This document shows, piece by piece, positions 1,233 to 11,102 of a stretch of 11,102 nucleotides of DNA. The stretch is taken from contig CAMAVZ010000055.1 of assembly GCA_945861645.1 (NCBI GenBank), positions 1 through 11,102 of the forward strand, given 5' to 3'. This DNA is from Opitutus sp. GAS368 (GTDB taxonomy: Bacteria; Verrucomicrobiota; Verrucomicrobiia; Opitutales; Opitutaceae). Position numbers and translations under genes: made by a program. Numbering within the stretch: the stretch's first letter is position 1; each line of letters opens with the position of its first letter. The notes beneath the pieces were generated by a model. It did not search any database, was not told the origin of the DNA, and saw only the letters and a program-made list of their open reading frames with translations.

Positions 1233-1991
1233 CTAAGGGACCGCCCGCCGAGGGCCCGCGGCAAATTTCCGTAGATACTTCAAGGCCACGGCAAAATCAT
1301 TCGGTAGCGGCGCCGCCAAAGTAAATTTTGTCCGACTGAGTGGGTGCGTAAAAGTCAACTCACTCGCGTGCAGGGCAAGGTGCGTGATCAAGGCTTTCTC
1401 ATCCGCGCGGCCTTTGTACCCGCGCTTTAACGCAGAAAGCAGCAGCAAGGTTTCCGTTCCATAAAGCCGATCATTCAAAATGGGCGTACCCTGCTCCGCT
1501 AAATGCAGGCGCATTTGGTGCGGGCGACTGGTTTGGGGTCGACACTCAACGTAGGCAAAACTCACCCGTCCGACGGGGGCCGGAAATTTTTCGAGCACGG
1601 TAAATTCCGTCAAACTGATTTGGCCGTGTTTCTTCACTACACACATGCGCCCGGGCCGCCCTTCATCTTCCTTCATCACAAGCTCAACGGTGAATTCATC
1701 GTTGAGTGGCACGCCTACCGTAAGCACCTGATAAATTTTTCCCACGGTCTTGGACTGAAACTGCCCGCTCAAGAAATCGAGGGCTAATTTATTTTTGGCA
1801 AAAAGCACCAAGCCACTCGTATCAGCATCGAGTCGATGCACCGTCGCCACCTCCGCGCCCCGATGGGCCCGGACTAGCTCAAGAAGATTTTCTTCCCCGG
1901 GGGCCCGCCGATCGGGCGCAATGAGCATGGCGCTGGGCTTGTCGAAAGCGATTAAGGCATCGTCTTCAAAAATGATCAGCGGCAGCGGCAT
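1233..1991 (-). CDS. RluA-family RNA pseudouridine synthase (no S4 domain), ~252 aa
   Basis: IIFEDDALIAFDKPSAM (motif I), VHRLDADTSGLVLFAK (catalytic Asp motif II), KIY, RPHQMRLH, GTPILNDRLYG and LALHASELTFTHP. The start is placed at ATG 1991 (MPLPLIIFED); the 44-codon upstream extension to 2123 in the ORF track has no family features. Confidence 0.93.
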   Translation of the reverse strand: MPLPLIIFEDDALIAFDKPSAMLIAPDRRAPGEENLLELVRAHRGAEVATVHRLDADTSGLVLFAKNKLALDFLSGQFQSKTVGKIYQVLTVGVPLNDEFTVELVMKEDEGRPGRMCVVKKHGQISLTEFTVLEKFPAPVGRVSFAYVECRPQTSRPHQMRLHLAEQGTPILNDRLYGTETLLLLSALKRGYKGRADEKALITHLALHASELTFTHPLSRTKFTLAAPLPNDFAVALKYLRKFAAGPRRAVP

Positions 1992-2060
1992 AGGGTGCTT
2001 TTTTACCGGGGAAGCCCTCGGCGCAATCCAATACGACGAATAGGTAACGCCAAGGTTAAG

Positions 2061-2096
2061 CTTCGATGACAAAGAGAAATTCTCTTTGTGACGAAG
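2061..2096. promoter_or_regulatory. Inverted repeat, putative transcription-factor operator in the divergent rluA-like/hydrolase intergenic region
   Basis: ACAAAGAGAA(2069-2078)-A-TTCTCTTTGT(2080-2089) is a perfect 10-bp inverted repeat with a 1-nt spacer, flanked by CTTCG(2061-2065)/CGAAG(2092-2096). Confidence 0.55.
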
Positions 2097-2128
2097 GCCC
2101 GCGAGATTGAACGATAACGGCATCCCTC

Positions 2129-3223
2129 ATGCCCCCATTAAATTTTAGTCCCATGCTATCATTGGTGGCGCAGCTCCGCCACAATCCGGCCGCGCCACTG
2201 CGGATGTGGTTGCGCACTACCGATCATAAAATTCGCCCCCCCAACGCTCAGCCCCATCGACCCCGCATGCAATCTCGCCAAGCCGCGGTCCTCGCGAGCG
2301 GGCTCGCTCGGCCGCAGCAGCAGGCGCAGATTTTATCTGAACCTGCCATGGGCGCACAACCGACCATCGTCGTAGGCGGGTTTGTCCCCGACGCGATGGA
2401 TGCCCTTTATCTCCTCCGCGGAAGTTTGCGGCGGCAAGGCAGCCTTTACACCCTGAATCATCCCCCCGCGGGTTTCTCGACAGATTTATTTCTAGCGCAG
2501 CTCGCTGATCTCATTGAGGAAGTAACCGCCGCCCACCATCGACCGCCGGTCGTGATTGGCATAAGTTTTGGCGGGGGACTGGTGTTAGAATTACTGCGGC
2601 GGGCCACGGCGCATGAGACGGCTCCGGCCTTGGCGGGACTCGTCCTGATCAGTCCGGTGGCCTGCGTGGCTGATCTGCTTGATCCCACTGCGCCCAAGGC
2701 CACCACCCTACTGGGCCGCGTCATCAAACCATATGTTGAGGTCGAAGGTCCCGCGGATGGGGTCATCATCGAGCGTTCTCGCGTCATCTTTTTGAAAATG
2801 TTTGAAGCCGGCGCGCAAAATCGCGCGGCCCTTGGTCTGCTGCTCACGCGCCAAGAAACCCAGCGATTGCGCGCCGCGGTCCTGGCAACGATCAATGCCA
2901 TCACCCCCACCGGCGTGCTCGAACGCGTGCGGGCCCTCCGCGAATTTTCCCTACCTAGTGAAACCCGCTGTCTCAGCCGGACGCCCACGCTGATTCTCTA
3001 CGCAGAGAAAGAAAGTGCGGTGCTGGTGGATAATTCGCCGACGGAACAAATCTTGCGCCAGCAGACGCTAAAATGTTTTCCCCTCGGGCACTGTCTGACG
3101 GTACGAAATACCCCTGAAAATCCCGTCCAGCACGCTTCGCTGATTTTCCACGCGCAAAACTTTGAACCATTGCTTAGTAGCTTTTATCGCCAGATTAAAC
3201 CGATCCAATATCGGGCCGCCTGA
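2129..3223 (+). CDS. Alpha/beta-fold hydrolase (serine hydrolase); start may instead be 2153 or 2267
   Basis: Nucleophile elbow PVVIGISFGG (G-x-S-x-G), oxyanion segment IVVGGF, LAGLVLISP strand, PTLILYAEKE (acid position) and VQHASLIF (His position). Confidence 0.88.
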   Translation: MPPLNFSPMLSLVAQLRHNPAAPLRMWLRTTDHKIRPPNAQPHRPRMQSRQAAVLASGLARPQQQAQILSEPAMGAQPTIVVGGFVPDAMDALYLLRGSLRRQGSLYTLNHPPAGFSTDLFLAQLADLIEEVTAAHHRPPVVIGISFGGGLVLELLRRATAHETAPALAGLVLISPVACVADLLDPTAPKATTLLGRVIKPYVEVEGPADGVIIERSRVIFLKMFEAGAQNRAALGLLLTRQETQRLRAAVLATINAITPTGVLERVRALREFSLPSETRCLSRTPTLILYAEKESAVLVDNSPTEQILRQQTLKCFPLGHCLTVRNTPENPVQHASLIFHAQNFEPLLSSFYRQIKPIQYRAA

Positions 3224-3232: not shown

Positions 3233-4855
3233 ATGCCGAGCGATCCGACCATCCTGCGCCCCGCGCCCCTACGGCTCCCGGCGGTCGCGCGCGCTTGTCT
3301 CAACCTTATTAGCGCGCCGCTGACCAGCCATACCGCGCGCCGCCTGCGTCGCCTCGGTAACGGGGTTGGCGCCCAAGAGACAATTTATCAATCGCTCGTC
3401 ACCACGCTAGCCCGACCCTCCTTCGGCCGCGTGGCTGGGCTGGAGCCCCATTTGCCCTATCGCACTTTCTGCGACCGCCTCCCCGCGCGCCACTATGAGG
3501 ATTTTTCGCCCTACATCGAACAGATGAAGCAGGGCCAAGCCGACGTGCTTTGCCCCGGCCGATGCGAATATTTCGCCGTCTCCTCGGGCACCACGGCAGG
3601 ACCCTCCAAATGGCTACCGGTCAACCGCGCCATGCTCGCTCACTTCCGGGAGGCGGGACTCGACACCCTATTTTATTATGCGCTGCGGGCAGGCAAAAAT
3701 TCCATATTCCACGGTCGCCATTTATTTCTAGGGGGTAGCAGCGCCCTGGTGGCGTTGCCCGAAATTCAACCGCCTATTTATTATGGCGATCTTAGCGGCA
3801 TCACTGCGCGCCATATCCCCGACTGGGTGGCCCGCTGGCTCTATGAACCAGGCCTCGCCATCGCGCATCTATCCGATTGGCCGGCTAAACTTGCCGCGAT
3901 TGCCCAGCGCACCTGGCGCGCTGATCTCACGATGGTGGCCGGGATCCCGAGTTGGTTGCTCGTGCTCGCCGCCACGATGCGCGCTCATGCCGAAGCCGTC
4001 TCCGGCCAGCGGCCGTCAACGCTCCAAGCTCTCTGGCCTAACCTGGAATGCCTCGTTCATGGCGGCGTGCCGGTCGCCCCATTCGCCGATGAATTGCGCG
4101 CGGCCTATGGCGCCAGCATCCAGTTCCATGAAGTTTATCCGGCGTCGGAAGCCTTTATCGCGATTCAAGACGCTGAGCCCGAAGCTGGCCTGCGCCTGCT
4201 GGTAGATCGCGGGATATTTTTTGAATTTCTACCCAGCGCCGATTACGACCCGAAAAACCCCGACGCGGCCGCCGGCCGAGCAGTGCCACTCGAAGGGGTA
4301 CAGATCAATGTTGATTATGTGCTGCTGCTCACCACCCCCGCTGGCTTGGTGCGCTATATTATTGGCGATCTGGTGCGCTTCATCAGTGTCTCCCCGCCTC
4401 GGCTGGTTTACGTCGGACGGACCAAACTCCAACTCAGTGCTTTCGGCGAACATGTCATTGAGAAAGAATTGACTGATGCCCTCACGGCGGTCTGCCGACA
4501 GCACAAGGTTCTCTTAACCAACTTTCATGTAGCCCCGCTTTTCCCTGATCCGGCCGCCCAGCGCCCGCTCGGCTGCCACGAATGGTGGATTGAACTGCGT
4601 CACCCGATCACGGCGATCCACGCTGAGCAATTTGCCGCTGATCTCGACCGCGCCCTCGCCGCCCGCAACGATGACTACGCCGCCAAACGCGCCGGGCAAG
4701 GTCTCACCCTGCCGCGCGTGCGGATGATGCCAGCAGGCAGCTTCGAGCAATGGCAGCGCCAATCTGGCAAATGGGGCGGCCAAAATAAAACTCCCCGGTG
4801 TCGTTCGGATCGACAAATCGCTGACCAACTCAAACTCTGCACCCCTTTAGCCTAG
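3233..4855 (+). CDS. GH3 auxin-responsive promoter family protein (acyl-acid amido synthetase-like adenylating enzyme), copy 1
   Basis: FAVSSGTTAGPSKWLPV (P-loop motif I), EVYPASEAFIA (motif II), GIFFEFLP, TTPAGLVRYIIGDLVRF (motif III), GRTKLQLSAFGEHV, HEWWIE, NDDYAAKR and C-terminal GKWGGQNKTPR, all typical of bacterial GH3 proteins. Confidence 0.93.
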   Translation: MPSDPTILRPAPLRLPAVARACLNLISAPLTSHTARRLRRLGNGVGAQETIYQSLVTTLARPSFGRVAGLEPHLPYRTFCDRLPARHYEDFSPYIEQMKQGQADVLCPGRCEYFAVSSGTTAGPSKWLPVNRAMLAHFREAGLDTLFYYALRAGKNSIFHGRHLFLGGSSALVALPEIQPPIYYGDLSGITARHIPDWVARWLYEPGLAIAHLSDWPAKLAAIAQRTWRADLTMVAGIPSWLLVLAATMRAHAEAVSGQRPSTLQALWPNLECLVHGGVPVAPFADELRAAYGASIQFHEVYPASEAFIAIQDAEPEAGLRLLVDRGIFFEFLPSADYDPKNPDAAAGRAVPLEGVQINVDYVLLLTTPAGLVRYIIGDLVRFISVSPPRLVYVGRTKLQLSAFGEHVIEKELTDALTAVCRQHKVLLTNFHVAPLFPDPAAQRPLGCHEWWIELRHPITAIHAEQFAADLDRALAARNDDYAAKRAGQGLTLPRVRMMPAGSFEQWQRQSGKWGGQNKTPRCRSDRQIADQLKLCTPLA

Positions 4856-4936
4856 AGGCCGGCGAGGGTGGCCCATTTTAGCGCCGCACCGTTTCGGATA
4901 TAGCCAAGCCGCCGGCACTCATTATACAGGGGAGTG

Positions 4937-6553
4937 ATGCCGCTCGTCCCGCGATTTTTAGTGAACTTCTGGGCGAGCTACCGCGTGACGCAATTCGTCC
5001 GCCGTCGGCCGTCACTCGGGCGGGGCGTCCGAGCGCAACAAGCGGCCTTCCGCCAACTCATGGAGCGCAGCGCGGGCACGGAGTTCGGCCGACTCCATAA
5101 TCTTACGGCGCAAACCACGTACCCGGAATTTTGTGAAAAAGTCCCACCGCGCCCGCATGATTATTTTGCGCCGCTCATCGCGCGCATGGCGGCCGGCGAG
5201 CCGGATGTCCTGATCCCGGGAAAATGTCAGTTGTTTGTCGAAACCGCCGGCACGACCAACTTCTCGCCCAAATTGCTACCGGTACCCGAGCCTATGCTCG
5301 CTCACTTCCAGCGAGGCCTGCGCGATGCGCTCTATCTTTATTCCGCCCGCGTCGGTCACGCGGGAGTTTTTCTTGGCCGCCACCTGCACGTCGGGGCGAG
5401 CACCGCGCTCGTCGAACAGCCGAGCCACCATCGCACCGGGCTCGATGGCCTCCTGAAGCTCTGCTTAACTCCTTGGGCCGAAGCTAAGCTTTATGCCCCG
5501 CCAGCAGCCATCGCCCAACTTCCGAGCGGGCCAGCGAAAATTGCCGCCACCCGACAAGCGATGCTCCCGCAGGATGTCACTCTGCTCGGCGGCAACCCTG
5601 CCGCCGTGAGCGCCCTCGCCCTCGCGGTGAGTCAATCGTCACCGCGCATTCCCCCGACGATTCAGCCCCTGACCTCCTTCTGGCCTAATCTAGAGTGCTG
5701 CGCCTTTACGGGAGCGGCCTTGGGCTTGCACGCTGAGCCGCTCCGCGCCGCCCTCGGCTCCACCGTCAACTTCCACGAAATTTATGCGGCGGCGGAGGGG
5801 ATCATTGCGGCGCAAGATGATGGCAGCCCCACGGGCCTAAGCTTACTGACCGATGCCGGTTTATTTTTTGAATTTATCCCCGCCCACCTCTTCAAAGACC
5901 ATCGACTGCCCGCCGCGAGCGCCGCCTGTCTGCCTTTAGCGCAAGTCGAAATCGATCGCGACTATGAACTTCTCGTGACCAGCCCCGCCGGTCTCTGCCG
6001 TTACGCTACGGGCGATATCGTGCGCTTTCTATCGCTTGATCCGCCGCGCTTACAATGGGCCGGACGGACGAGAGGCCAGCTCAACACCTTTGGCGAACGA
6101 GTCACTGAACAGGAAATCACCGACAGCCTCCTCGCGGTTTGCGCGCGCAACGGCTGGCGGCCAATTAATTTTCACGTAGCTCCGTCGAGTCACCGCATCG
6201 CGGCCGGCCAAATCATCAGCAGCCATGAGTGGTGGCTCGAGTTGGGTACGCCCACGATAAAAACCCCCACCGCGAATGGGCTCGCCCCCGAACTCGATGC
6301 GGAACTCGCGCGACGCAATCGCGAATACGCCGCCCACCGCACGGCCGGTCGCCTGTTCTTGCCCACCGTATGGCTCGTCATGCCGGGCGTGTTTGCCCAG
6401 TGGCGCCAGGCAAATGAGCAACCCGGTTTTGCGGGAAAAATACCGCCCTGCCGCCCCGATCGTCTCATCGCAGATCAACTCGCCGCCCTCACTCATTTCC
6501 ATCAAGCCCCCGTGCCTAGCTTCCCCCCGAGCCCGCCTTCATCCTCACCCTAA
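4937..6553 (+). CDS. GH3 auxin-responsive promoter family protein, copy 2 (divergent motifs); alternative GTG start at 4934
   Basis: FVETAGTTNFSPKLLPV, EIYAAAEGIIA, GLFFEFIP, TSPAGLCRYATGDIVRF, GRTRGQLNTFGERV, HEWWLE and NREYAAHR. It is colinear with copy 1 over its whole length. Confidence 0.9.
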   Translation: MPLVPRFLVNFWASYRVTQFVRRRPSLGRGVRAQQAAFRQLMERSAGTEFGRLHNLTAQTTYPEFCEKVPPRPHDYFAPLIARMAAGEPDVLIPGKCQLFVETAGTTNFSPKLLPVPEPMLAHFQRGLRDALYLYSARVGHAGVFLGRHLHVGASTALVEQPSHHRTGLDGLLKLCLTPWAEAKLYAPPAAIAQLPSGPAKIAATRQAMLPQDVTLLGGNPAAVSALALAVSQSSPRIPPTIQPLTSFWPNLECCAFTGAALGLHAEPLRAALGSTVNFHEIYAAAEGIIAAQDDGSPTGLSLLTDAGLFFEFIPAHLFKDHRLPAASAACLPLAQVEIDRDYELLVTSPAGLCRYATGDIVRFLSLDPPRLQWAGRTRGQLNTFGERVTEQEITDSLLAVCARNGWRPINFHVAPSSHRIAAGQIISSHEWWLELGTPTIKTPTANGLAPELDAELARRNREYAAHRTAGRLFLPTVWLVMPGVFAQWRQANEQPGFAGKIPPCRPDRLIADQLAALTHFHQAPVPSFPPSPPSSSP

Positions 6554-6582: not shown

Positions 6583-7677
6583 TTACGCAGGCAAATTGTG
6601 CTGCAGAAACCGCAGGAAGTTGCCGTGCATGATCCCCGCAATCTCACTGGGCTGATAACCCCGTTGCGCCAGAAGGAGCGGTACTTTCTGTAAATCCGCT
6701 ATCGTATCGAGATCCTCTGGCGATTGCTCATGACCAAAACCGCCATCCAAATCGGTGCCGATGCCAGCGTGCTGCGCATTGCCCGCGAGTTGGCAGACGT
6801 GATCGATCTGCTCCACCATGTGCGCCAATTTTACGCCCACATCACTGGGGCGAGTTTTATTTTTCACCCACCCCGGCACGAGCATCCACGCATCCAGCGC
6901 GGTCCCCAACACCCCACCCCGCTCGATCACGGTCTTAATTTGTGCATCATCGAATTGTCGCACCCCCGGCACCAAGGCCCGGCAATTTTGATGACTAGCC
7001 CAAAGCGGACCGTGAAAAAGTTTGGTCGCTTCCCAAAAGGCTTCATCGCTCAAATGCGTGCAGTCGAGAATCAGGCCTAAACGATTCATTGCTTTAATCA
7101 GCTCACGACCAGCCGAGCTCAGGGGGCCCGTGGCTTCCGTGCCGGGCGCATAGGTGCCGGGGCCGTAATGCGCCGGACCAATGGCGCGCAACCCTTGCGC
7201 GAAGGAACGTTCCAAATGTTGCAACGTCACCATCGAATCAGCGCCTTCTAAACTCAGGACATAACCAATCGGCCGCGGCGCGGCGGTGGCGGACTCCGCC
7301 CGAGCGTCTGGGGTGGGTTGCCACAATTTAATCATCTTCGCCAAGCCGGCCTGGTTGGTGATTGGAAACATTTCGCCGCGCTCTTCCATCGCCCGATACC
7401 AAGCCAACTGGCCCTGCGTTTGCGCCCATGCCTGTGACGGAGAATGCCAACCGGAGAGCGGATGGGTCGGTTTGACGTAACGCGCAATCTGCGTCGCCAC
7501 ACAAATTCCCACCTGACCACGGCGCATCTCCGGCAGACAAACCGTCCCATGACCACGGTCCGCCTTATCGTGCTGATCTTTTTCCCGCACGCGAATTTCA
7601 GCGATGGGGCGCGTCAGATCGCGATTCCACTCCAACGCGTTCATACTCAGATCAAGGTGGGCGTCAAAAATAAGCAT
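6583..7677 (-). CDS. Membrane dipeptidase family (peptidase M19, renal-dipeptidase-like) metallo-amidohydrolase
   Basis: IFDAHLD (H-x-D metal motif), LSLEGAD, ILDCTHLS, LWASHQN, RQFDD and HAGIGTDLDGG. No signal peptide is evident. Confidence 0.93.
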   Translation of the reverse strand: MLIFDAHLDLSMNALEWNRDLTRPIAEIRVREKDQHDKADRGHGTVCLPEMRRGQVGICVATQIARYVKPTHPLSGWHSPSQAWAQTQGQLAWYRAMEERGEMFPITNQAGLAKMIKLWQPTPDARAESATAAPRPIGYVLSLEGADSMVTLQHLERSFAQGLRAIGPAHYGPGTYAPGTEATGPLSSAGRELIKAMNRLGLILDCTHLSDEAFWEATKLFHGPLWASHQNCRALVPGVRQFDDAQIKTVIERGGVLGTALDAWMLVPGWVKNKTRPSDVGVKLAHMVEQIDHVCQLAGNAQHAGIGTDLDGGFGHEQSPEDLDTIADLQKVPLLLAQRGYQPSEIAGIMHGNFLRFLQHNLPA

Positions 7678-7728
7678 GGGGTAAGTAGGTGCTTTAAATA
7701 AAAGTGGATGCGCAGCCGCCGATGGCGT

Positions 7729-8835
7729 TCAAATCGTGATTTGTCGAGCGCGCCCGGTAATTGGCCAGCACTCCCCCGCCACGCCCGCGGTCACGGTCAC
7801 AGCCTGGGCATAGAGCGCGACGGTCGGACAAATATGCCAAGGAATCCCATACAAACAAGCGCCCACGGCAAAATCCGCCGCGTGCGCGGTGGCGACCACC
7901 AAATGCTCTTCGCTGTGCAACACGGCCGTGGCGTCGGGGAGATTGAAAAAAATTACGCGGGGATGAGGATTTTCCGCCGCAATCGCTTTATGACCTAAGT
8001 CCAACGTCAAATGATTCGCCTGCGGCTTGCTGACGACGCGCGTCAGCACCAAGGCCGCTTGGAGAAAAGCTAAATCCGGACAAAGTTGCGCGTAGCCCGC
8101 ATCCCAAAAAATACAGGTACCCGGACTGCATTCCACTTCGCCGCGGCGCGCATGAATCGGAAAAGTCGGGGTGCCACTGGCGATGATCCGCGGCACGGTG
8201 AAACCCTGCGCAATGAGCCTGTGACGCAATTCGTTGACGGGGCCGTAAGCCTCCGCCACCCGTTGCGTGCGCACCGCCAAATCGCGGTCATGAATATGAC
8301 CGTCGTAGGCGTGCAAGCCCGCGAACCGCAAGGCGGGTAAGCTCGCAATGAGTTGGGCCAACGCCAACGCCTCCGGCCCGGGTTTAATGCCGGTGCGCCC
8401 CATGCCACAGTCGAGGTCAATTAAAACCGCCAGCACCTGCTGCGCCGCGTTCGCCGCCTCGGCCAGCGCGCGCGTTGCAGCGGCATCATCAACAACGACC
8501 GCGAATTGGGTCGCAGGAAATTTCTCTATTAATTGCAGCCAACGCCCAAGATTAGGCCCGACGAGCGGATACGAGAGTAACACTTCCGCCGCACCGGCAC
8601 TGGCCGTAACTTCAGCTTCAGCAATCGTCGCGCATTTAAATTTCGTGATCCCCGCCGCGCACTGTAGCGCAATAATCGGGGCGAGCTTGTGCGTTTTCAT
8701 GTGCGGCCGCAAACGCTCAACCCCACCCGCCAACGCGATCATCCGGCGGATATTCTCGCGGACGCGATCAGGATAAACCAACAATGCCGGCGAGGCCACG
8801 GCCTCGTGATTAGTAAGCTCATACCAGTTTTTCAC
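7729..8835 (-). CDS. Fold-type III PLP-dependent enzyme, D-threonine aldolase / D-serine dehydratase (DSD1, D-TA) family, ~368 aa
   Basis: SPALLV, LRPHMKTHK (PLP lysine), CATIAEAE, DLDCGMGRTG, GLHAYDGH, SGTPTF, LDLGHKA, SEEH and PWHICPTV (metal-binding His/Cys). The start is placed at GTG 8835 (VKNWYEL); the ORF-track start at 8964 overlaps the RidA gene. Confidence 0.9.
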   Translation of the reverse strand: MKNWYELTNHEAVASPALLVYPDRVRENIRRMIALAGGVERLRPHMKTHKLAPIIALQCAAGITKFKCATIAEAEVTASAGAAEVLLSYPLVGPNLGRWLQLIEKFPATQFAVVVDDAAATRALAEAANAAQQVLAVLIDLDCGMGRTGIKPGPEALALAQLIASLPALRFAGLHAYDGHIHDRDLAVRTQRVAEAYGPVNELRHRLIAQGFTVPRIIASGTPTFPIHARRGEVECSPGTCIFWDAGYAQLCPDLAFLQAALVLTRVVSKPQANHLTLDLGHKAIAAENPHPRVIFFNLPDATAVLHSEEHLVVATAHAADFAVGACLYGIPWHICPTVALYAQAVTVTAGVAGECWPITGRARQITI

Positions 8836-8881
8836 AAGAGGGCGGAGCGTAGTTTTTAAAAAAGCAACGGCCGAGGCGGTT

Positions 8882-9343
8882 TTACCCCAGCTCAAACATC
8901 GCCTCAATCTCGACGGCAATATTACCCGGCAGCGAGCCCGCGCCGACCGCGCTGCGGGCGCCAATCCCTTGCTCGGGCCCGAACACTTCGACCATCAACT
9001 CACTGTAGCCATTAATCACTTGCGGATGCTGGGTGAAATCAGCGGCGGCGTTAACCAGGCCCAGTGTTTTTATGAGACGCTTAATCCGGTCCAACGAGCC
9101 CAGCTCCTGCCGCAAAGTAGCGAGCATGGTCAGACCCACTTGGCGGGCGGCAAATTTTCCCTGCGCGAGCGTCAAATCAGCTCCCACGCGGCCGGTCAGC
9201 ATCGTGCCATCAAGCTGCAACGGGCCGTGACCAGAAACATAAGCCAACGAACCCACGATGACCACCGGGCGGTAAATCCCGCCCAAAGGCGGTGGTGGAG
9301 GCAGCGCTAAATTTAAGGCAGCAAATCGTTTTTCGTGGCTCAT
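8882..9343 (-). CDS. RidA/YjgF/YER057c/UK114 family protein (imine/enamine deaminase-like)
   Basis: GIYRPVV, LAYVSGHGP, GRVGADL, VINGYSELMVEVFG, GARSAVG (conserved Arg), SLPGNIAVEIEA. Confidence 0.93.
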   Translation of the reverse strand: MSHEKRFAALNLALPPPPPLGGIYRPVVIVGSLAYVSGHGPLQLDGTMLTGRVGADLTLAQGKFAARQVGLTMLATLRQELGSLDRIKRLIKTLGLVNAAADFTQHPQVINGYSELMVEVFGPEQGIGARSAVGAGSLPGNIAVEIEAMFELG

Positions 9344-9364
9344 AAATAAAATAACTGAACCATG

Positions 9365-9392
9365 AACCTAAGGATTCGCGGCGCCGAGGCAA
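9365..9392 (-). promoter_or_regulatory. Putative sigma70-type promoter for the RidA-PLP enzyme-dipeptidase operon
   Basis: Minus strand TTGCCT (9392-9387)-N16-TAGGTT (9370-9365), about 20 nt upstream of the RidA ATG and followed by an AT-rich leader. Confidence 0.35.
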
Positions 9393-9406
9393 GCCTACGG
9401 CACCGC
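9378..9406 (-). terminator. GC-rich hairpin just after the stop of the 470-aa gene (terminator or 3' stabilising stem; no immediate U tract)
   Basis: Minus-strand RNA GCGGUGCCG-U-AGG-CUUG-CCU-CGGCGCCGC forms a 9-bp stem (one U-G), a bulge, a 3-bp stem and a G(CUUG)C tetraloop, starting 10 nt after the stop at 9416. Confidence 0.5.
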
Positions 9407-9415
9407 ACGGACTGA

Positions 9416-10828
9416 CTACTCAGATTTTTTGGTGCGAGATTTCTTGGCGGCCGTCTGCTTAGCATTCAGCCAAACTTGTCCCTTAGCATTGACGTTCAGC
9501 CAATAAATTTCTCCGCCGTGCTCCGCAAAAGTGGGTTTAGCCTTGGGCGAACTTGGCCGCTCGAGACCCGCTGTCACCAAGATCGCCTGTAATTGCGTTT
9601 CGGTTTTTTCTAATTTTTTCGCGAGATCTTTGACCAGTGCGGTGACGCCTTCGCCACGTTTCTTGGGCTCCATCATGAGCCGCATCGCGGTCAGAGTGTT
9701 CTCGGGCGGCAAGATTTTCCCCGCCGACCGCCTTTTAGTGGGCACAAAGGCATCGCGCGAATCTGCCGAACCGCGCGCCGACCCGGCGGCCCGGGGAGCA
9801 GCGACCACCGGGGCTGAAGCCGGCGCGTCTGCCTCGAGCGGTTTTTCTTCGGCATTAATCCAAATCTCTCCGCGCTGATTGCGGTTGAGGTAATATTCAA
9901 AATTTCCTTTCCGCGCCAACACGGGCTCGTCGCCTCCCGACAAACGCAGCCCAAATTCGCTCAGTTTTTCTAGTAGCTGCGCGTCATCGAGTTTCAACGC
10001 TTTGGTGAGATAAGGGAAACTACCGGACCAGCCGTGACCGCGCCGATTGCGCCGCATCATGGTACGAATGCGACCCAGGAAAGAATCCGATCCGGCAAAG
10101 ACCGCCTCAAGGGCCCGCGGCGGTTGTTCCGCGCGGGACTCCGGGCGCGGCGCGGCGAGACGCGCGGGTTGCTGTTCAGCGGGGACGGGGGTCGTCTGCG
10201 CGAGCTTAAATTTCTTATCCCGCGTATTTACCCAAATGCGGCCGTTTTGATCGCGCTCCAACCAATAGAGCGACCCGTCATAATCAACCACGTCACCTTT
10301 CGCTTCACCCGCGGCCGGCAGCGGTAAACCGCACTCTTCAAAAGCGGTGAGAACTTCCCGCGCATCCTGTTCAAATTTCTTGGCGAGAAAATCTAACTCT
10401 ACCGTGCGATCACCGTGCGAATTTTTTCGCAAAAATGGCTGCAAGGCTTCGAAAAGTGTCGGCAAATCTTCTTCACTGCCCTCGAGGTCATCAAAATTAC
10501 CGAGCCCCAAATCAATCGGGAGCGGGGCATTGACCGGACGCGTGGGCGGCAAGTCGTCGGCAAAAGAACGTTCATCCTTCCCGTCATCTTCCTCGGCGGG
10601 AATGGGTGGTGGCGTATAAGCGGGTTTCGCCGCGGCGGGCGGGAACCAATCCCGAGCGACAGGGCGACGAGCTAGGCCATTAAACACGAGTGGATTATCC
10701 GGCTTCGCGGTAAAATTGATGATCTCCCATTCATCCTTACCCAGCTGCCCGAGGTGTTGTTCGAGCAACTGCATGTTGGCAAAACCCAGCGGTCCACTGG
10801 AGATCAATTTATATTCCCAAGATGACAT
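9416..10828 (-). CDS. Hypothetical protein, ~470 aa: DUF4177-like N-terminal domain plus three tandem winged-helix-like repeats
   Basis: Long ORF. The N-terminal WEYKLIS...LEQHLGQLGKDEWEII matches the WEYK...LNxLGxxGWEL pattern of DUF4177. Three internal repeats end in Y[WY]Lxx[DN]xxGx[IV]W[VIL]N and are separated by Pro/Ala-rich linkers. The start is placed at ATG 10828 (MSSWEYK). Confidence 0.85.
   Translation of the reverse strand: MSSWEYKLISSGPLGFANMQLLEQHLGQLGKDEWEIINFTAKPDNPLVFNGLARRPVARDWFPPAAAKPAYTPPPIPAEEDDGKDERSFADDLPPTRPVNAPLPIDLGLGNFDDLEGSEEDLPTLFEALQPFLRKNSHGDRTVELDFLAKKFEQDAREVLTAFEECGLPLPAAGEAKGDVVDYDGSLYWLERDQNGRIWVNTRDKKFKLAQTTPVPAEQQPARLAAPRPESRAEQPPRALEAVFAGSDSFLGRIRTMMRRNRRGHGWSGSFPYLTKALKLDDAQLLEKLSEFGLRLSGGDEPVLARKGNFEYYLNRNQRGEIWINAEEKPLEADAPASAPVVAAPRAAGSARGSADSRDAFVPTKRRSAGKILPPENTLTAMRLMMEPKKRGEGVTALVKDLAKKLEKTETQLQAILVTAGLERPSSPKAKPTFAEHGGEIYWLNVNAKGQVWLNAKQTAAKKSRTKKSE
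9452..10462 (-). repeat. Three protein-level repeats of ~83 aa (10211-10462, 9842-10087, 9452-9703)
   Basis: R1 TLFEALQPFLRKNSHGDRTVELDFLAKKFEQDAREVLTAFEECGL...YWLERDQNGRIWVN; R2 SFLGRIRTMMRRNRRGHGWSGSFPYLTKALKLDDAQLLEKLSEFGL...YYLNRNQRGEIWIN; R3 NTLTAMRLMMEPKKRGEGVTALVKDLAKKLEKTETQLQAILVTAGL...YWLNVNAKGQVWLN. Confidence 0.85.
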
Positions 10829-10963
10829 ATGAACCCAACGCATCCTGCATCACCCCGCCTGACGCCAGCTTATATTTTTCGCCCACGCCCCGTAAATTCC
10901 TAGCCATAAAGAGTCACCCCGATCCTGCTTCCCAATTCCGCCAATTCTGTCCAAACACTGCGC

Positions 10964-11102
10964 ATGCGCCGCGTGGACCAACTGCTCGCCAATCTCGGCT
11001 ACTGCTCGCGCCGTGAGGCCCGCGGCTGGATCCAAGCAGGCCGCGTTACCGTGCGTGGCGTGACGGAAAAAGATTTTGGCGCCAAAGCGAATCCCGCCGA
11101 GG
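10964..11102 (+). CDS. S4-domain protein, most likely an RsuA/RluB/E/F-family rRNA pseudouridine synthase; 3' end lies outside the window
   Basis: Manual translation from ATG 10964 gives MRRVDQLLANLGYCSRREARGWIQAGRVTVRGVTEKDFGAKANPAE, a canonical S4 signature (R-x-D-x-x-L...SRREA...I..GRVTV.G). The frame is open to the window end and is not in the ORF track. Confidence 0.85.
   Translation, partial: MRRVDQLLANLGYCSRREARGWIQAGRVTVRGVTEKDFGAKANPAE

Follow-up and report, generated by a model that had tools for sequence, protein, structure and literature searches.

DNA-reading winged helix-turn-helix regulators typically possess a basic or polar recognition helix that faces the major groove. Z-alpha domains, such as those of ADAR1 and PKZ, are also small winged helices and are characterized by a conserved Asn and Tyr in helix 3 and by an important Trp in the wing. 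The C-terminus of SelB, UFL1/DDRGK1, ScpB, and ESCRT-II likewise contain several winged-helix modules per chain, which pack closely or have short links and serve to bind RNA, ribosomes, or partner proteins rather than to read DNA. IF2_N (PF04760), the N-terminal subdomain of bacterial IF2, is reportedly a β-α-α-β-β-α unit of about 50 amino acids (aa). DUF4177 (PF13783) is a family of mostly small, stand-alone proteins, to which the accessible parts of two reports assign no established function (PMC11322243, PMC13118837). The gene described here lies on the minus strand of a contig of Opitutus sp. GAS368 (CAMAVZ010000055.1, assembly GCA_945861645.1; genome 84% complete), and the window analyzed is the entire contig of 11,102 bp. 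Its product is a probably cytoplasmic “beads-on-a-string” protein, and the gene is real and apparently transcribed. The predicted architecture consists of a DUF4177-like head, an acidic disordered linker, three divergent winged-helix modules (R1, R2, and R3) on flexible linkers, and a basic tail. Judged from its sequence and from a model of R3, the protein appears to represent a new sequence family and a new architecture within the known winged-helix fold.

The three repeats are clearly related to one another. A sequence-only reading of the same DNA had proposed an unannotated domain of about 83 aa, present in three copies between positions 9452 and 10462. Smith-Waterman comparison of the repeats gives scores of 84-104 against shuffled means of 23-25 (z 12-21), and BLASTP aligns R1 with R2 (E 2e-9, 29% identity), R1 with R3 (E 7e-12, 30%), and R2 with R3 (E 2e-13, 33%), which bears out the triplication. 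The repeated domain stands, but its size is about 86 aa, and the proposed span holds the repeats while omitting the DUF4177-like N-terminal domain and the acidic linker. The motifs that had been picked out (RKNSHG, RRNRRG, PKKRG, L[AT]K...GL, and a Trp/Asn hairpin) are present in the translation, as are the Pro/Ala-rich linkers and the tail AAKKSRTKKSE. In an alignment of 103 units, the columns conserved at 90% or more are R17, G18, G20, L28, G47, P58, W69, N71, G76, W79, and N81; R17, G18, and G20 belong to a loop, W69 and N71 to one strand, G76 to a turn, and W79 and N81 to another strand.

At the DNA level, no trace of the repeats is left in the gene, which indicates an old triplication. 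A quick tree of the 103 units, taken from 38 sources, clusters them by position as R1, R2, or R3, and the triplication is therefore older than the sampled genomes. Copy number is nearly constant, with three repeats in 119 of 121 proteins, four in one, and two in one. The variation in copy number that had been suggested as a check thus exists, in forms with two, three, and, in one protein from a short contig, four repeats. The sole four-repeat form (P0003, 615 aa, on a contig of 2191 bp) has R2 duplicated at 93% identity and may have arisen by recent duplication or through faulty assembly. Only two repeats are present in a clade with a Nibricoccus metagenome-assembled genome among its members (loci L033-L035, e.g., L035 6001-7767). 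In this clade, about 150 low-complexity Ala/Glu/Pro/Ser residues stand in place of R3, the same basic tail is kept, and linker 2 contains a long Ala/Glu/Arg-rich stretch that is possibly helical.

The domain had been described as unnamed, and the family searches agree. No Pfam or NCBIfam model reaches its curated cut-off on the repeats, the best Pfam models on the window protein being HTH_53 (15 bits, cut-off 30.6) and IF2_N (11.1 bits, E 0.35, cut-off 25.3). When the 103 units were scanned singly, none reached a Pfam cut-off, and E-values of 0.1 or less were obtained for HTH_53 in six units and for IF2_N in three. In PHROGs a single row came up (E 0.22), and PADLOC yielded nothing. No significant match to a solved structure was obtained for R1, for R2, or for the profiles of the repeat and of the whole protein, and the protein atlas gave no usable match for the repeat. 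The literature consulted, largely outside subscription journals, holds no description of this protein family. Membership in OST-HTH/LOTUS (PF12872) was rejected, since that model has no match in the window's genome or in the family relative G022; hhalign against OST-HTH gave a probability of 0.2%, a value that is uninformative with two sequences.

The best sequence-level resemblance of the repeat is to IF2_N, as the sequence-only reading had proposed for R3. Among 191 genomes of the order outside the family, the sole match of the repeat profile is an IF2 N-terminus (E 4e-4, 20 bits), and for this reason the repeat was compared with other domain families by hhalign. Against 29 IF2_N domains from genomes of the order, the probability is 47.9% (E 1.9e-4) over 26-27 columns, which extend from strand 1 through helix 2 and the turn to helix 3; the control against the unrelated head domain gives 0.25%. 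The resemblance therefore stands as a pattern, but not as membership, given a Pfam score of 11.1 bits against the cut-off. It is probably real, though short and weakly supported, and the repeat's N-terminal helix, Arg loop, and Trp/Asn wing have no equivalent in IF2_N. In the window's genome, PF04760 is found in IF2 only, on another contig. The IF2 matched by the profile belongs to a nusA-infB locus (L045, G114:C1:168500-172500) in a reduced 0.8-Mb genome of the same order.

A second resemblance concerns the WW domain. The WW signature consists of two tryptophans 20-22 residues apart and a C-terminal Pro. In the profile search of solved structures, seven of the 15 weak rows are WW entries (E 0.016-0.69, all aligned on the last three strands at profile positions 60-85), and R1 matches the WW domain of KIBRA at E 0.74. 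Moreover, the spacing of Y-[WY]-x-N...W in the repeat equals that of WW strands 2 and 3. Together with linkers that contain 11-20% Pro across homologs and with opposite charge blocks within the protein, this could suggest multivalent self-association or a condensate, in which, within one molecule or between molecules, the WW-like wing would dock onto the Pro-rich linkers of the protein itself, or the acidic linker would be bound by the basic modules. We consider such a behavior very unlikely. The WW matches are individually insignificant, PF00397 matches neither the protein nor any of the 103 units, and the first WW tryptophan has no counterpart, so that WW membership was rejected and the matches are best regarded as motif resemblance. 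The linkers are also the least conserved parts of the protein, no conserved PPxY-like motif is seen in them, and in the model of R3 the strands concerned form the wing of a winged helix.

The fold was predicted for R3 with AlphaFold2, using the 103-unit alignment. The model has a mean predicted local distance difference test score (pLDDT) of 94.5 and a predicted template modeling score (pTM) of 0.86, and DSSP assigns to it helices at residues 2-11, 25-31, and 36-45 and strands at 21-24, 59-63, 66-72, and 78-84 (H-β-H-H-β-β-β). R3 is accordingly modeled as a winged helix of the order H1-S1-H2-H3-S2-wing-S3, in which three core helices pack against a small antiparallel sheet. Three elements set it apart from the canonical fold: helix 1 and strand 1 are connected by an ordered loop rich in Arg (consensus RRNxRGxG), 13 residues are inserted behind helix 3, and the wing is preceded by an additional strand. 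The three-stranded wing holds two nearly invariant Trp-x-Asn motifs, one on each of two strands, and the i, i+2 spacing of Trp and Asn directs all four residues toward one face of the sheet.

The R3 model was compared with known structures in two ways. Foldseek retrieved nothing from the PDB at E≤0.001, its best match having an E-value of 0.15. Exhaustive alignment with VIA-align retrieved winged-helix proteins. Among 48,161 representative chains, 60 reached Z≥5 and none Z≥8, and the program cautions that values below 8 may mirror a common arrangement only. The 50 matches listed are all winged-helix at the aligned range, as judged from titles and general knowledge, with Z 5.1-6.4 and a root-mean-square deviation of 2.1-3.7 Å over 57-76 residues. 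They include MarR/MepR, ArsR/SmtB/NolR/HlyU, Z-alpha, ScpB, Scc1-C, SelB, UFL1/DDRGK1, TFIIIC, ESCRT-II, and cullin/PCI proteins. Structural realignment of Foldseek's top 1000 agrees (MepR 6.0, RctB domain 3 5.9, Z-alpha 5.9). A divergent winged helix was accepted because of this uniform match list and the matching topology, and the winged-helix-like topology that had been read from the letters is thus upheld by the model and its matches. Two further lines were set aside. Mutual information from 485 distinct units (effective number of sequences 168) yields pairs compatible with the model, among them 60-67, 73-77, and 44-78, and was given no weight because it is confounded by the three repeat classes; secondary structure from Chou-Fasman and hydrophobic moments was superseded by the model.

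MarR/MepR and ArsR/SmtB/NolR/HlyU proteins share with R3 the element order H1-S1-H2-H3-wing, and about 63-65 of its 86 residues superpose on MarR/ArsR-type repressors at 2.4-2.8 Å (7wze, 4xrf, 2kko, 4omy, 4k2e, and 3bpx; Z 6.0-6.4). Z-alpha structures (1qbj, 2gxb, 3irq, 4kmf) match over 60-63 residues with Z 5.4-5.9, and a tryptophan in the wing is a feature of Z-alpha. On these grounds, and with Z 5.3-6.4 for MarR, MepR, ArsR, SmtB, NolR, and HlyU, the protein could be a sequence-specific regulator of the MarR/ArsR type or a binder of Z-DNA or Z-RNA. Such a role appears highly improbable. With MarR/ArsR-type proteins there is no detectable sequence relationship, and the Foldseek comparison is not significant; the Pfam MarR model (PF01047) matches two other genes of the genome, but neither the target nor its counterpart in a relative's genome, and hhalign against 16 MarR domains gives a probability of 1.9% (E 0.026). 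The basic or polar recognition helix of such regulators is not found, since helix 3 of the repeat contains 2.27 Asp/Glu and 0.47 Lys/Arg residues per unit (103 units). The repeat also differs in its Arg-rich loop after helix 1, the 13-residue insert, and the extra pre-wing strand. It has no dimerization helix or other dimerization element, three tandem copies per chain on long disordered linkers are unlike such regulators, and the gene is single-copy, with no fixed neighboring target gene. As for Z-alpha, no sequence similarity to the repeat is seen, and the helix 3 sequences (ETQLQAILVT in R3, DAQLLEKLSE in R2, AREVLTAFEE in R1) are rich in Glu, Ala, Leu, and Gln, with wing tryptophans present but without the conserved Asn/Tyr pair; membership in Z-alpha was therefore rejected.

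The tandem arrays of SelB, UFL1/DDRGK1, ScpB, and ESCRT-II (1lva, 8b9x, 8qfc, 3w6k, 3cuq) match the R3 model with Z 5.3-5.9, without sequence similarity to the repeat. In contrast to these arrays, the linkers here span 18-177 aa, with poor conservation and low-complexity sequence.

The sequence-only reading had inferred a multivalent nucleic-acid-binding protein, and the sequence offers indications both for and against such binding. With regard to the ligand, we tentatively prefer, with somewhat less than an even chance, a multivalent polyanion binder that leans to RNA or the ribosome. A polyanion is favored because the loop, the wing tip, and the tail are basic and R2 and R3 are net basic. 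Across the 103 units, the loop between helix 1 and strand 1 contains 3.26 Lys/Arg vs. 0.46 Asp/Glu residues per unit, and the wing turn 1.29 Lys/Arg. The mean net charge is +3.1 for R2 and +1.3 for R3, and in 108 of 110 full-length homologs the final 12 residues include at least four Lys and Arg. The lean toward RNA or the ribosome derives from regional synteny with an rsuA-like S4 pseudouridine synthase gene, yhbY, and rsgA, from the structural matches to SelB (1lva, Z 5.5) and UFL1/DDRGK1 (8b9x, Z 5.9; 8qfc, Z 5.7), tandem arrays that bind RNA or ribosomes, and from YjzH, a DUF4177 protein of B. subtilis that the accessible part of a preprint lists among RNA-bound proteins (bioRxiv 10.1101/2025.03.21.644579). 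In such a mechanism, the modules would bind a polyanionic polymer, with RNA or the ribosome somewhat more likely than DNA, through the Arg-rich loop, the wing, and the basic tail, and helix 3 would read no sequence. The three tethered copies would supply avidity, and the acidic linker and the acidic R1 may compete with this binding or tune it.

A number of observations weigh against polyanion binding. Apart from the acidity of helix 3, the net charge of R1 is negative in every case (−6 to −1 across 36 units), and a median isoelectric point (pI) of 5.6 with a linker 1 charge of about −13 (median −13, range −15 to −7; both in 110 homologs) is unlike typical nucleoid proteins. Many of the winged-helix matches are protein-binding modules (ScpB, Scc1, ESCRT-II, cullin, PCI), and the N1 domain of IF2, which has the closest sequence pattern, binds the protein NusA according to the accessible part of one report (PMC12297416). 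Synteny among related loci is weak evidence, and the immediate neighbors vary. The fold itself is taken from the model of one repeat, R3, the Foldseek search is negative, and the Z scores lie below 8. The RNA-library contigs discussed below also carry their own ambiguity.

Because helix 3, R1, linker 1, and the pI are acidic, a classical DNA-reading or nucleoid protein is disfavored, and the same features leave room for a protein-binding scaffold. As a scaffold or adaptor, the protein would bind a protein partner through each module, in the manner of ScpB-ScpA, kleisin-SMC, ESCRT-II, cullin, and PCI modules, and its three copies would recruit several partners or copies. This is possible, although we regard it as rather unlikely. 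The acidic helix 3 and the overall pI fit it, as do the matches to ScpB (3w6k and 4i98, both Z 5.6), Scc1-C (1w1w, Z 5.6), ESCRT-II (3cuq, Z 5.3), and CUL9 (8q7h, Z 5.2). The IF2_N-like segment of two helices would agree with it as well, in view of the binding of NusA by IF2 N1, although that similarity is short and below the family threshold. The Trp-x-Asn pairs of the wing could form a peptide-binding surface, their exposure being suggested by strand alternation and crude covariation. Conversely, the gene neighborhood points to no partner, and the conserved Arg-rich loops and the basic tail are better explained by a polyanion.

The N-terminal head is likely a divergent member of DUF4177. The copy in the window scores 14.9 bits (E 0.031) against the Pfam model, whose cut-off is 25, and all 24 homologous N-termini compared match it at E≤0.1, the best at 4.6e-6. 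Sub-threshold DUF4177 matches occur in seven of 148 representatives. Head and DUF4177 have in common a WEYK start and a GWE[IL] motif, and the look-alikes of the head in the protein atlas are DUF4177 clusters (score 0.83), a result that is to be taken as a lead only. A search of solved structures with the N-terminal profile gave nothing significant, and the matches of the head profile outside the family are all marginal (E about 6e-4 to 9e-4) and fall on open frames 159-176 aa long. In contrast to the head, which is joined to a long protein, described DUF4177 members include one of 66 aa that is termed bacteriocin-like in the accessible part of one report (PMC11322243). The accessible literature mentioning DUF4177 contains no report of its fusion to winged-helix repeats.

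The gene is confined to a large clade of one family, named Opitutaceae in record titles. The 103-unit repeat profile, run against 1.84 billion cluster representatives, matches 185 at E≤0.001 and 143 at 1e-10, with 1-3 matched stretches each; complete-looking representatives have the head, three repeats, and the tail, and most others are fragments. Within the family, the repeats occur in 116 of 150 other genomes and in 50 of 63 genera, and in 102 of the 125 high-quality genomes when the window's genome is counted. A sample of the order found them in all nine family genomes and gave one match (the IF2 N-terminus) in 191 genomes outside the family, and a sample of the phylum in 24 of 26 family genomes and in none of 274 outside. 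The lineage restriction that the sequence-only reading had suspected is thus supported. The head domain is missing as well from five family genomes that have no repeats. A genome of the same genus (G580, 99% complete) gave no match with 17 of 35 candidates scored, which is not read as absence. The record titles of 40 related loci name Lacunisphaera, Oleiharenicola, Nibricoccus, Opitutaceae, Opitutia, or Verrucomicrobiota; the homolog in L029 belongs to Oleiharenicola lentus, a cultured carrier. Searches of viral contigs, plasmids, and phages turned up no relative. Fusions to a TonB-receptor piece, HTH_17, a biotin-lipoyl domain, or GH114 in metagenome fragments are probably gene-call or assembly artefacts of short contigs. 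At E≤0.001, 611 proteins of comparable length were retrieved by a word-indexed search; of these, the 120 that were listed are all unnamed or “hypothetical,” as are the cluster members read.

Conservation follows the domain boundaries. In an alignment of 67 sequences, the majority fraction is 0.71-0.83 in the folded parts and 0.57, 0.45, and 0.29 in linkers 1, 2, and 3, and domains of 83-92 aa contrast with linkers of 18-177 aa. Against nine close homologs, the ratio of nonsynonymous to synonymous substitution rates (dN/dS) is 0.00 for the head, 0.02 for R1, 0.065 for R2, and 0.068 for R3, and 0.245 and 0.514 for linkers 2 and 3; because dS saturates, only two or three pairs are usable for the head (three), linker 1, and R1. 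Purifying selection on the gene is strong. Parts of the gene are covered, at ≥95% identity, by contigs from four metatranscriptome runs that come from three or more studies, a result that is compatible with DNA carry-over and that leaves the parts without RNA-contig cover uninformative. These RNA contigs fit transcription in lakes, where the gene is apparently expressed.

The gene is conserved, and its true start is probably the second ATG, at 10828, which gives a protein of 470 aa. This start is preferred because homologs begin with M-x-x-WEYK and because the counterpart of the upstream ATG is out of frame in a more distant locus (L022). MxxWEYK is the N-terminal consensus of 67 homologs, and M-x-x-WEYK opens the protein in all 36 homologous loci in which the start motif was located with a pattern of our own making. 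The peak 19-residue Kyte-Doolittle mean is 0.54, indicating no hydrophobic or membrane segment, and the protein is therefore taken to be cytoplasmic. The repeat profile, searched against the gene's own genome, matches just the three repeats of this gene, which is single-copy. The features are collected in Table 1.

Table 1. Features of the repeat-protein gene and its divergent neighbor (positions in the window; residues counted from the first ATG).
Feature	Positions	Strand	Remarks
Whole open reading frame	9416..10843	minus	475 aa from first ATG; stop codon 9416-9418
N-terminal DUF4177-like domain (likely)	10646..10828	minus	residues 6-66, 61 aa, MSSWEYK...RDW
Linker 1, acidic and Pro-rich	10469..10645	minus	59 aa, net charge −10
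Repeat R1, acidic copy	10211..10468	minus	residues 126-211
Linker 2, Pro/Ala-rich, length varies	10100..10210	minus	29-177 aa in 67 homologs
Repeat R2, basic copy, loop RRNRRGHG	9839..10099	minus	residues 249-335
Linker 3, Ala/Pro-rich, least conserved part	9707..9838	minus	18-87 aa in 67 homologs
Repeat R3, modeled copy, predicted winged-helix fold	9449..9706	minus	residues 380-465
Basic C-terminal tail AKKSRTKKSE	9419..9448	minus	also kept in the two-repeat clade
Divergent neighbor, start of S4 and pseudouridine synthase gene	10964..11101	plus	cut by contig end; context

Upstream of the gene, the motif TATAAGCTGGCGTC (10861-10874, minus strand) lies in the divergent intergenic region of 135 nucleotides and is followed by GGATGC; both are kept in four loci. 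The four include the distant locus L022, where the first motif reads TTTAGGCTGGCGTC. TATAAGCTGGCGTC and GGATGC could be the promoter −10 and the leader of the gene. A scan for the sigma-70 consensus called no sigma-70-like promoter, the divergent intergenic region included, the Rfam and tRNA scans returned none, and terminator-like sites in a consensus scan were at chance level. Between the stop codon of the gene and the start of the next one, a RidA gene, a 72-nucleotide spacer (9344-9415, minus strand) contains a G+C-rich hairpin pair (−26.9 kcal/mol, z −2.5, equaled in 2 of 200 shuffles), after which the sequence is U-rich immediately ahead of the RidA ATG; this hairpin was not called as a terminator in the consensus scan.

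The divergent position next to an S4-domain gene had been taken in the sequence-only reading as compatible with an RNA-related role. The divergent S4 gene is real, and its full-length counterpart in L006 contains S4 and PseudoU_synth_2 domains. An S4-pseudouridine synthase gene is found within 6 kb upstream in 26 of 40 related loci, and yhbY and rsgA are also upstream in many of them. However, it is the immediate divergent neighbor, as in the window, in three of the 26 (L001, L006, and L022), and in other loci a TonB-dependent receptor, dehydrogenase, esterase, or unknown genes lie between it and the target. The link is thus one of regional synteny and a weaker argument for an RNA role than had been supposed, and an operon-type link to the S4 pseudouridine synthase was rejected.

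Other genes of the window surround the locus. Directly downstream of the target, positions 6583-9343 (minus strand) encode an M19 membrane dipeptidase, an alanine-racemase-N/D-serine-dehydratase-like protein, and a RidA/YjgF protein, an order kept only in the closest relatives (L001, L006, and L040). Two adjacent genes of the GH3 family (3233-4855 and 4934-6553, plus strand), with N-terminal, middle, and C-terminal GH3 domains, are preceded by an alpha/beta hydrolase gene (2129-3223), and a GH3 gene is the convergent downstream neighbor of the target in 24 of 40 related loci. A second pseudouridine synthase gene (1233-2123, minus strand) is of the RluA type and has no S4 domain; its listed open reading frame has about 45 extra N-terminal residues before the Pfam match, and its start may be called too early.

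A bolder proposal, which we hold to be doubtful, is that in this new winged-helix family the binding surface consists of the Arg-rich loop and an exposed wing platform of two Trp-x-Asn motifs, and not of the recognition helix, so that three such modules and a DUF4177 head would make an Opitutaceae-specific multivalent holder of RNA or ribosomes or an organizer of condensates. If true, it would provide the first functional context for the widespread orphan DUF4177. At the level of the fold, there is no surprise. What the protein appears to add to the winged-helix fold is an undescribed sequence family whose helix 3 is acidic, whose Arg-rich loop is ordered, and whose wing carries Trp and Asn. 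The architecture is also unusual, in that a DUF4177-like domain is followed by three copies separated by long disordered linkers. Most sampled Opitutaceae carry the gene and keep it under strong purifying selection, and it has no name in the databases searched. Its ligand, once identified, could give a first functional clue to DUF4177 and would account for a gene that defines a clade in a lineage common in fresh water and soil.

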